A stretch of 64,000 nt of DNA. Source: Escherichia coli (lineage in GTDB: Bacteria > Pseudomonadota > Gammaproteobacteria > Enterobacterales > Enterobacteriaceae). Location: assembly GCF_044324875.1 (NCBI RefSeq), contig NZ_CP172185.1. The stretch is one strand, 5' to 3'. Below the pieces are notes generated by a model, which saw nothing but the letters and a program-made list of their open reading frames with translations, had not been told where the DNA came from and searched no databases. A program made the translations under genes and the position numbers. Shown here one piece after another: positions 3,529 through 5,370 of this stretch (the first letter of the stretch is position 1; the number at the start of each line of letters is the position of its first letter).

Positions 3529-4160
3529 CCTTACATACCGGCCAGCTTTTGCCTGCGCAGTTGCTGCATTTGGTGGATCGCGGTGAATATGTAATGCATC
3601 AGTGGCTGTGGGATCTTTTTCCTGGCGGCAAAGAAAGGCAATTTCTTTATCGTCGGGAAGAACTCCAGGGGGCGTTTCGCTTTTTTGTCCTGTCGCAGGA
3701 ACGCCCGGCGGAAAGTGATATTTTCACCATCGAATGCCGACCATTTGCGCCAGAGTTGCGTACCGGACAATCCCTTTGTTTCAACCTGCGGGCGAATCCA
3801 ACAATTTGTAAAGCGGGCAAACGCCACGACTTGCTGATGGAGGCGAAACGGCAGGTGAGGGGGCAGGTGGAAGGAAGTGATGTCTGGTTGCATCAACAAC
3901 AGGCGGCGCTGGACTGGCTGGCAGCGCAGGGGGAAAGAAGCGGTTTTACACTACTGGATACCTCGGTCGATGCCTACCGACAACAGCAACTGCGGCGGGA
4001 AAACTCCCGGCAACTGATCCAGTTCAGTAGCGTGGATTATACGGGGATGCTTACGGTCACCGATCCTGGGTTATTTCTGCAACGTCTCAGTCAGGGGTAT
4101 GGCAAAAGCCGGGCGTTCGGTTGTGGTCTGATGCTGATCAAACCCGGAGCAGAGGCGTGA
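3510..4160 (+). CDS. casE: Cas6e/CasE pre-crRNA endoribonuclease
   Basis: Start set at ATG 3510 (MYLSRI..., AGGAGG 5 nt upstream) inside the longer ORF 3372..4160; overlaps the end of casD; position before cas1. Confidence 0.75.
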   Translation: MYLSRITLHTGQLLPAQLLHLVDRGEYVMHQWLWDLFPGGKERQFLYRREELQGAFRFFVLSQERPAESDIFTIECRPFAPELRTGQSLCFNLRANPTICKAGKRHDLLMEAKRQVRGQVEGSDVWLHQQQAALDWLAAQGERSGFTLLDTSVDAYRQQQLRRENSRQLIQFSSVDYTGMLTVTDPGLFLQRLSQGYGKSRAFGCGLMLIKPGAEA

Positions 4161-5080
4161 CGTTTGTACCGCTGAGCCCGATCCCATTAAAAGATCGCAC
4201 TTCCATGATCTTCCTCCAGTACGGTCAAATCGACGTACTGGACGGCGCTTTCGTGCTGATCGACAAAACAGGGATCCGCACGCATATTCCAGTGGGATCG
4301 GTCGCCTGCATTATGCTCGAACCGGGAACAAGAGTTTCCCACGCGGCAGTCCATCTGGCCGCCACGGTGGGAACACTGCTGGTCTGGGTCGGTGAAGCGG
4401 GCGTTCGCGTTTACTCCTCCGGACAACCCGGAGGGGCGCGGGCAGATAAATTACTCTACCAGGCAAAGCTGGCTTTAACGGAAGATCTACGGTTGAAGGT
4501 GGTGCGCAAAATGTATGAATTACGTTTTCGTGAACCACCGCCAGCTCGCCGTTCAGTGGAGCAGTTACGGGGAATTGAGGGATCCCGTGTTCGCCAGACC
4601 TATGCATTACTGGCGAAGCAATATGGTGTGAAATGGAATGGTCGCAAATACGATCCTAAAGACTGGGAAAAAAGCGATGTTGTGAATCGCTGCATCAGTG
4701 CTGCCACATCATGTCTGTACGGTATTTCTGAAGCGGCAGTATTAGCCGCGGGATATGCGCCCGCTATTGGATTTATCCATAGTGGCAAACCGCTTTCATT
4801 TGTTTATGACATAGCCGATATCATTAAATTTGATTCGGTTGTGCCAAAGGCATTTGAAATAGCAGCGAGGCAACCCGCAGAACCAGATAAAGAAGTCAGG
4901 TTGGCCTGTCGTGATATTTTCCGTAGCAGTAAGTTAACGGGCAAATTAATTCCGTTAATCGAGGAAGTGCTTGCCGCAGGTGAAATTGAACCACCACAAC
5001 CCGCGCCGGATATGTTACCGCCTGCCATCCCTGAACCTGAAACGCTGGGCGATAGCGGTCACCGGGGACGCGGCGGATGA
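4157..5080 (+). CDS. cas1: Cas1 integrase (type I-E)
   Basis: Protein [51 protein letters not shown]... closely matches E. coli Cas1 (YgbT) as recalled; probable GTG start at 4157 overlapping the casE stop (GTGA). Confidence 0.9.
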
Positions 5081-5370
5081 GTATGGTCGTCGTTGTTACA
5101 GAAAATGTCCCTCCGCGCTTACGTGGACGGCTCGCGATCTGGCTCCTGGAAGTGCGTGCCGGTGTTTATGTCGGAGATACGTCCAAACGTATTCGGGAGA
5201 TGATCTGGCAGCAAATCTCTCAACTGGCAGGTTGCGGAAATGTGGTAATGGCCTGGGCGACCAATACCGAGTCGGGTTTTGAATTTCAGACCTGGGGTGA
5301 AAATAGACGTATTCCGGTGGATTTGGATGGGGTGCGTTTGGTTTCTTTTCTTCCTGTTGATAATCAATAA
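5077..5370 (+). CDS. cas2: Cas2 (type I-E)
   Basis: 97 aa [34 protein letters not shown]... resembles K-12 YgbF/Cas2; ATG overlaps the cas1 stop. Confidence 0.9.

Follow-up and report, generated by a model that had tools for sequence, protein, structure and literature searches.

Several genes of the type I-E cas operon at the beginning of this 64,000-nt stretch of Escherichia coli DNA (hereafter the window) run into one another, and the junction between casE and cas1 raises two linked questions: at which codon does cas1 begin, and do the ribosomes that complete casE go on to translate cas1? The explanation that best fits the evidence assembled below, and which we consider very probable, is that cas1e starts at the GTG at position 4157, inside a GTGA overlap with casE, with termination-reinitiation from casE as the likely mechanism.

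The cas operon and its genomic setting

The operon occupies positions 1-5370 on the plus strand and comprises the 3' part of casA followed by casB, casC, casD, casE, cas1 and cas2. The order cse1-cse2-cas7e-cas5e-cas6e-cas1e-cas2e was confirmed, with all seven proteins scoring above the curated NCBIfam cutoffs for type I-E (Table 1). The casA gene is cut by the left edge of the window; the remaining fragment covers positions 131-503 of the 504 in the TIGR02547 profile, and its end agrees with the RefSeq annotation of the nearest E. coli, in which it lies at the equivalent of 1168. In E. coli relatives cas3 is located upstream of casA, a region that precedes the window. Downstream of cas2 lies a CRISPR array with regular repeats from 5467 to 5922, 32-nt spacers and a degenerate terminal repeat at 5955-5983, which is followed by iap and cysDNC. 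An Rfam scan of the whole window returned three tRNAs near 63.1-63.6 kb only, with no match in the cas region. Minus-strand open reading frames of 98, 79, 74 and 62 aa all lie wholly inside the selected cas1 frame, and the RefSeq annotation of the nearest E. coli has no minus-strand gene across cas1.

Region 3400-5400 shares 94-98.5% DNA identity with 2650 complete E. coli genomes, O157:H7 among them, and collinearity of the window with E. coli O169:H41 extends for 48 kb or more. Judging from its sequence, the operon represents cas-E1, the variant that prevails in E. coli, and not the cas-E2 set of K-12 (nomenclature of Almendros et al. 2014, PMC3903273); the cas operon of K-12 falls within the replaced module, cas-E2 (PMC3903273). 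The closest point of reference is the cas-E1 locus of NZ_CP062824, whose Cas1e (WP_024229849.1) has equal coordinates (the equivalent of 4157..5080), a GTG start and the same overlaps with its neighbours, GTGA with cas6e and ATGA with cas2e. The two loci differ by about 1.5% of nucleotides and in their CRISPR spacers, none of which is relevant here.

Table 1. Features of the cas operon, its gene junctions and the candidate cas1 start codons (window coordinates).
Feature	Position	Strand	Details
casA/cse1, 3' three-quarters	2..1168	+	TIGR02547, 429 bits vs cutoff 70
casA/casB junction	1165-1168	+	ATGA; ...GCT GAA TGA / ATG AGT
casB/cse2	1165..1701	+	TIGR02548; RefSeq
casB/casC junction		+	14-nt gap; Shine-Dalgarno element present
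casC/cas7e	1716..2771	+	TIGR01869, 448 bits; RefSeq
casC/casD junction		+	10-nt gap; Shine-Dalgarno element present
casD/cas5e	2782..3528	+	TIGR01868; RefSeq
casD/casE junction	3510-3528	+	19-nt overlap; casE ATG 3510; casD stop ends 3528
casE/cas6e	3510..4160	+	TIGR01907, residues 1-212 = profile positions 1-207; RefSeq
In-frame TTG, mechanical 12-aa extension of cas1	4121..4123	+	rejected as start
GGAG Shine-Dalgarno element for cas1, inside casE	4146..4149	+	7 nt upstream of GTG
casE/cas1 junction	4157-4160	+	GTGA; ...GAG GCG TGA / GTG ACG
cas1e, 307 aa, GTG initiator	4157..5080	+	TIGR03638 (cas1_ECOLI), 381 bits vs cutoff 215.6
First cas1-frame ATG (Met17)	4205..4207	+	rejected as start
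cas1/cas2 junction	5077-5080	+	ATGA; ...GGC GGA TGA / ATG AGT ATG
cas2e	5077..5370	+	TIGR01873; RefSeq
CRISPR array, eight 29-nt repeats, 61-nt spacing	5467..5983	+	equivalent array annotated in RefSeq

The initiation codon of cas1

Comparative evidence indicates that cas1e begins at GTG 4157, which would yield an ordinary 307-aa Cas1e with the N-terminus (f)Met-Thr-Phe-Val-Pro-Leu. The first-pass annotation had proposed this codon and suggested an alignment of Cas1 N-termini as a check. When the longest version of the reading frame, extended to the upstream TTG, was searched against solved structures, Met1 of K-12 Cas1 (PDB 3NKD, 5DS4, 5VVK) fell on codon 13, that is, on GTG 4157, and homology was absent upstream of it. 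K-12 Cas1 (YgbT, b2755; PDB 3NKD, 4P6I, 5DS4), a cas-E2 protein, is 85% identical to the Cas1 of the window, and its N-terminus MTWLPLNPIPLKDR aligns with the latter residue for residue. Orthologues with a longer Cas1 N-terminus, named by the same annotation as the contrary observation, were not found; what sister species carry instead are stop codons upstream.

The comparison was widened to 84 related loci, made up of 80 Cas1e loci (one genome per GTDB species, 75-99% identity) and four from E. coli. A start codon stands exactly at the equivalent of GTG 4157 in 62 of the 84, and no more than four codons away in the remainder; including the window, the initiators are ATG in 65 cases, GTG in 18 and TTG in two. 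Six species, Klebsiella spallanzanii, K. grimontii, K. indica, Citrobacter youngae, C. sedlakii and Intestinirhabdus alba, have the same GTGA junction, and in all of them the cas1 frame is closed by stops one to six codons upstream of the GTG, so that an N-terminal extension is impossible there. Set against the window, these six species differ in cas1 codons 2-16 by 43 synonymous and two non-synonymous changes, whereas reading the 12 codons that precede the GTG in the cas1 frame gives six synonymous and 41 non-synonymous changes in addition to stops. One row of this comparison, misaligned by one codon, was disregarded. This contrast, together with the conservation of the motif P-L-x-P-I-P-L-K-D-R in 85 of 85 Cas1 sequences, argues that translation in the cas1 frame begins at the GTG and at neither Met17 nor the TTG.

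Two other candidate starts have to be weighed against GTG 4157. A longest-ORF rule would place the start at TTG 4121, the earliest start codon that the open frame offers in the window, and give Cas1 a 12-residue N-terminal extension (MWSDADQTRSRG-). The frame does permit it, since it is free of stops for 43 codons upstream of the GTG in E. coli, and TTG 4121, 12 codons up, is the sole start codon in that interval. The first-pass annotation had described the codon responsible for the 12-residue extension as an ATG, which does not exist; the ATG at 4131, close to the cas1 start, belongs to the casE frame. A start at TTG 4121 is extremely improbable, however, as O157:H7, LY180, E. albertii and most close relatives read CTG here, 12 of the 13 most closely related loci lack a start codon at this position, and in sister species stops intervene before the GTG is reached. 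The extension has no homology to Cas1, the stretch from TTG 4121 to the GTG evolves like casE and unlike cas1, the Shine-Dalgarno (SD) pairing of the TTG is poor (-3.1 kcal/mol), and the corresponding 319-aa form is absent among some 15 billion catalogued proteins. On these comparative grounds the TTG start can be regarded as effectively refuted already. The opposite proposal, that cas1 starts at ATG 4205 and encodes a 291-aa protein shorter by 16 residues, has in its favour that ATG is the preferred initiator and is the codon that a gene caller forbidding GTG would pick. It is nonetheless very unlikely to be correct: ATG 4205 is practically without an SD element (-0.9 kcal/mol), the 16 codons that would be lost are those under the strong purifying selection just described and carry the invariant motif, and the residues they encode align to residues 1-16 of crystallised K-12 Cas1. 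The 291-aa form, too, is absent from the same body of catalogued proteins.

GTG 4157, by comparison, is preceded by a GGAG element, and its best anti-SD duplex over the preceding 20 nt reaches -6.0 kcal/mol, which is within the top 11% or so of positions between 30 and 9000 of the window. The GGAG is kept in every GTGA-lineage locus listed. In the RefSeq/PGAP annotation of the nearest E. coli cas1e likewise spans the equivalent of 4157..5080, O157:H7 and LY180 share this start, and the exact 307-aa protein is an NCBI entry named Cas1e that occurs on 171 contigs (EHS0459954.1 being an exact match). The assignment of GTG 4157 as initiator thereby draws on the K-12 alignment, the 84 loci, the sister-species stops, the substitution pattern, the SD element, RefSeq and the exact look-up, and it holds. 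It is also correct but ordinary, being already recorded by public annotation.

Overlapping junctions and their Shine-Dalgarno elements

The overlaps of casA with casB (ATGA), of casE with cas1 (GTGA) and of cas1 with cas2 (ATGA) that the first-pass annotation had pointed out are all real and can be read directly from the DNA. At the casE/cas1 junction the GTG (4157-4159) and the casE stop TGA (4158-4160) have two bases in common. The casD/casE overlap exists as well, although its length had been given as 18 bp; the true value is 19 nt, with which the RefSeq annotation of three E. coli agrees. This length follows from a casE start at ATG 3510, where the anti-SD duplex is -11.4 kcal/mol compared with -4.1 at ATG 3372. 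The latter is the start of the mechanical open reading frame and was rejected as it adds a spurious 46-codon extension with a weak SD, the TIGR01907 match beginning with the protein that starts at 3510. The casB start is preceded by an AGGAGG element 7 nt upstream, with an anti-SD duplex of -10.3 kcal/mol.

Overlaps of this kind are common in the neighbourhood. Across the collinear 50 kb of the closest E. coli, as annotated in RefSeq, four of the six cas junctions overlap, and so do 15 of the 24 other same-strand junctions less than 30 nt apart; an excess in the cas operon over neighbouring operons was sought and not found in this comparison (Fisher p = 1.0). Taking all same-strand junctions of these 50 kb together, 19 of 43 overlap, nine of them of the -4 type. 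The -4 overlap is the commonest junction in E. coli, where spacings from -8 to +6 nt account for 24% of unidirectional gene pairs, and a further peak at +9 to +12 nt, into which casC/casD fits, is explained by spacers that contain an SD element (Huber et al. 2023, PMC10666635).

Translational coupling or independent initiation

The question that remains is how ribosomes arrive at the GTG. We favour the reading, with the probability somewhat on its side, that ribosomes ending casE restart at the cas1 GTG, and likewise from casA to casB and from cas1 to cas2. Ribosomes terminating at the casE TGA would be held by the intragenic GGAG, step one base back and reinitiate at the cas1 GTG, so that Cas1 output would track the translation of casE, at a level lowered by GTG being the weaker codon. 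The two ATGA junctions have the same geometry and may well use the same mechanism. The casD-to-casE step, with its 19-nt overlap and strong AAGGAGG, would probably depend mainly on its own SD, while casC and casD, which follow gaps, could start independently or through short-range coupling.

The geometry that coupling calls for is present, in the form of the three 4-nt overlaps and, for cas1, a GGAG at working distance. Precedent comes from E. coli itself, where four out of five native gene pairs overlapping by 4 nt were strictly coupled, and in four out of five removal of the SD lowered reinitiation (Huber et al. 2019, PMC6728339). The pairs hyfHI, astDB, ydbH/ynbE as well as menDH resemble casE/cas1 in having a stop/start overlap of 4 nt together with an SD that lies within the upstream gene; coupling was measured in these four pairs (PMC6728339), whereas casE/cas1, which uses GTG, is likened to them by geometry alone. 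Coupling requires an overlap or a very short gap, and with some 20 nt between the genes it is lost (Huber et al. 2023, PMC10666635). A literature search on type I-E cas operons yielded neither measured coupling nor start-site mapping, the papers retrieved being those on coupling in general. A promoter and terminator consensus scan of positions 3400-5500, which is weak evidence as to whether casE and cas1 share a transcript, returned two promoter-like sites compared with 1.8 expected, none of them at the casE/cas1 border, and no terminator there in excess of chance.

The alternative is that the same GTG is used de novo, with free 30S subunits binding the GGAG independently of casE and the overlap reflecting compact packing of the genes. 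The SD of cas1 is indeed moderate in strength and well spaced, and it does not appear to be masked: the RNA between 4097 and 4217 folds with -31.9 kcal/mol, compared with -33.1 ± 3.8 for shuffled sequences (z = 0.33), showing no extra stability and by itself speaking neither for nor against coupling. Since the folding is no stronger than that of shuffles, the SD would be exposed, which makes de novo initiation a live alternative. The bioBF pair provides a precedent in E. coli, as it initiates independently and is uncoupled despite a 4-nt ATGA overlap (PMC6728339), and many relatives have gaps of 10-47 nt between casE and cas1, where independent initiation is needed. Against this stand the strict coupling of the four pairs of the same geometry mentioned above and the retention of the GTGA/ATGA junction across the whole lineage considered below, its most diverged member included. 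De novo initiation is in our view rather unlikely, and we retain termination-reinitiation at GTG 4157 as the preferred reading.

Junction architecture across relatives

The 19-nt casD/casE overlap occurs in 15 loci, and every one of them combines it with the 4-nt casE/cas1 overlap, 14 times as GTGA and once as ATGA, the single ATGA being that of Escherichia albertii. One of the 15 belongs to a betaproteobacterium, Parasutterella excrementihominis, with a Cas1 identity of only 77%. Beyond this group, among other Gammaproteobacteria that carry Cas1e, the distance between casE and cas1 varies from -8 nt to about +1000 nt, which means that the system does not in general need tight coupling. The junctions of K-12 differ as well: its cas1 starts with ATG after a 15-nt gap, in contrast to the GTG and 4-nt overlap of the window, and it has a 1-nt gap between cas1 and cas2, a 14-nt overlap between casD and casE and an 8-nt overlap between casA and casB. 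Even within E. coli the cas1/cas2 junction alternates between ATGA and TGATG, LY180 being an example. As far as these sequence comparisons go, the way the junctions are built characterises the operon lineage and is not a general feature of type I-E.

ATG initiates more efficiently than GTG, yet about one in seven E. coli genes begins with GTG, so a GTG at cas1 is unremarkable and would lower Cas1 relative to CasE. It is conceivable, though doubtful, that selection holds the GTG at the cas1 start and thereby keeps the integrase Cas1 well below the upstream Cascade subunits. The last codons of casE in the enterobacterial loci compared are GCG, GTG, GAG and GGG, and a G-to-A change at the base shared with cas1 would be silent in these codons and create an ATG for cas1; the shared base is nevertheless G in 14 of the 15 lineage loci and A only in E. 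albertii. The Cas1 of E. albertii is 98% identical to that of the window, and the two loci have the 4-nt casE/cas1 and 19-nt casD/casE overlaps in common but differ in the junction itself, ATGA as opposed to GTGA, which shows that this position tolerates an ATG. Since the independent lineages are few and this one ATG is tolerated, the evidence for selection on the GTG is weak. If it did act, the start codon would itself set how much of the adaptation module is made relative to the interference module.

Implications for annotation and for the cas-E1 adaptation module

No open question hinges on the GTG start of cas1, and its main relevance is for annotation. Rules that take the longest ORF or accept only ATG miscall Cas1 by +12 aa (TTG 4121) or -16 aa (ATG 4205), and the same kind of rule miscalls CasE by +46 aa (ATG 3372), whereas current pipelines already place both starts correctly. 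The cas-E1 adaptation module is commoner in E. coli and less studied than that of K-12. For its expression, constructs should be cloned from the GTG, with a possible swap to ATG, and separating cas1 from casE may alter the expression of cas1.

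Start codons and gene junctions

The longest-ORF trap of cas1, where the first start codon of the open frame is TTG 4121, 12 codons before the real start, is repeated in casE, for which the upstream codon truly is an ATG. The longest casE frame in the window opens at ATG 3372, 46 codons before the real start at ATG 3510 (MYLS...), and the SD reaches -11.4 kcal/mol at ATG 3510 versus -4.1 kcal/mol at ATG 3372; with its weaker SD, the latter was rejected as the casE start, the stretch 3372-3509 being a spurious upstream extension. GTG, not ATG, appears to initiate casE in Klebsiella, Citrobacter and Intestinirhabdus members of the operon lineage (L009-L014), which keep the 19-nt casD/casE overlap. 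At the cas1/cas2 junction, a one-codon change in Cas1 length switches the overlap type within one species: the window carries ATGA (5077-5080), whereas E. coli LY180 (L003 5675-5680) has TGATG with a 1-nt overlap, a junction also present in several Klebsiella and Citrobacter loci.

Variation around the operon and its possible spread

Differences in the window were scored against E. coli O169:H41, the closest complete genome. The CRISPR spacers beyond the first repeat (5495-5957) are entirely different, and the window lacks both about 1 kb of the rpoS-mutS interval, holding a hypothetical gene directly after rpoS (17118-17194), and the higB/HTH toxin-antitoxin pair after hycI (39246-39397). Three tRNA genes lie close to its right end (table).

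The whole operon lineage, defined by the 19-nt casD/casE overlap, seems to have moved horizontally, as is suggested by the recurrence of its architecture (19-nt casD/casE overlap, casE/cas1 GTGA; Cas1 identity 77%) in the betaproteobacterial gut species Parasutterella excrementihominis (L074). Two short contigs of MAGs assigned as Gram-positive also carry E. coli-like casE-cas1, most likely through binning contamination rather than transfer.

Accessory genes between casE and cas1

Several marine Gammaproteobacteria (Marinomonas, Methylophaga, Halopseudomonas and one Alteromonas MAG) hold a KilA-N gene of 272-287 aa (Pfam PF04383, E 7e-22) in the casE/cas1 interval. An 8-nt overlap links its stop with the cas1 ATG in L050 and L059, and likewise in L054 and L057, where the copy is internally deleted and shortened to 163 aa. 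We know of no described role for KilA-N genes within type I-E operons. Toxin-antitoxin-type genes occupy the same junction in further loci (L061, L066 and L064, and presumably L080). The casE/cas1 junction has the appearance of a hotspot at which accessory genes insert.

Features of the window and of related Cas1e loci
Feature	Locus	Coordinates or contig	Remarks
KilA-N gene between casE and cas1	L034	1672-2490	strand as cas genes; PF04383
Same	L050	1627-2490	same
Same	L059	1630-2493	same
Same	L065	1639-2460	same
Same	L068	1635-2459	same
Same	L071	1677-2498	same
PIN gene	L061	1982-2497	casE/cas1 junction
PIN/DUF3368 gene	L066	1859-2467	casE/cas1 junction
174-aa counterpart of L066 gene	L080	1868-2392	casE/cas1 junction; domain scan covered L066
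HTH_37 gene	L064	2206-2487	casE/cas1 junction
casE-cas1, 99% identical to E. coli	L005	JAEWTL010000035.1	'Bacillota bacterium' MAG
casE-cas1, 99% identical to E. coli	L084	JAIJJM010000114.1	'Collinsella sp.' MAG
Three tRNA genes	window	63110-63554	Rfam RF00005
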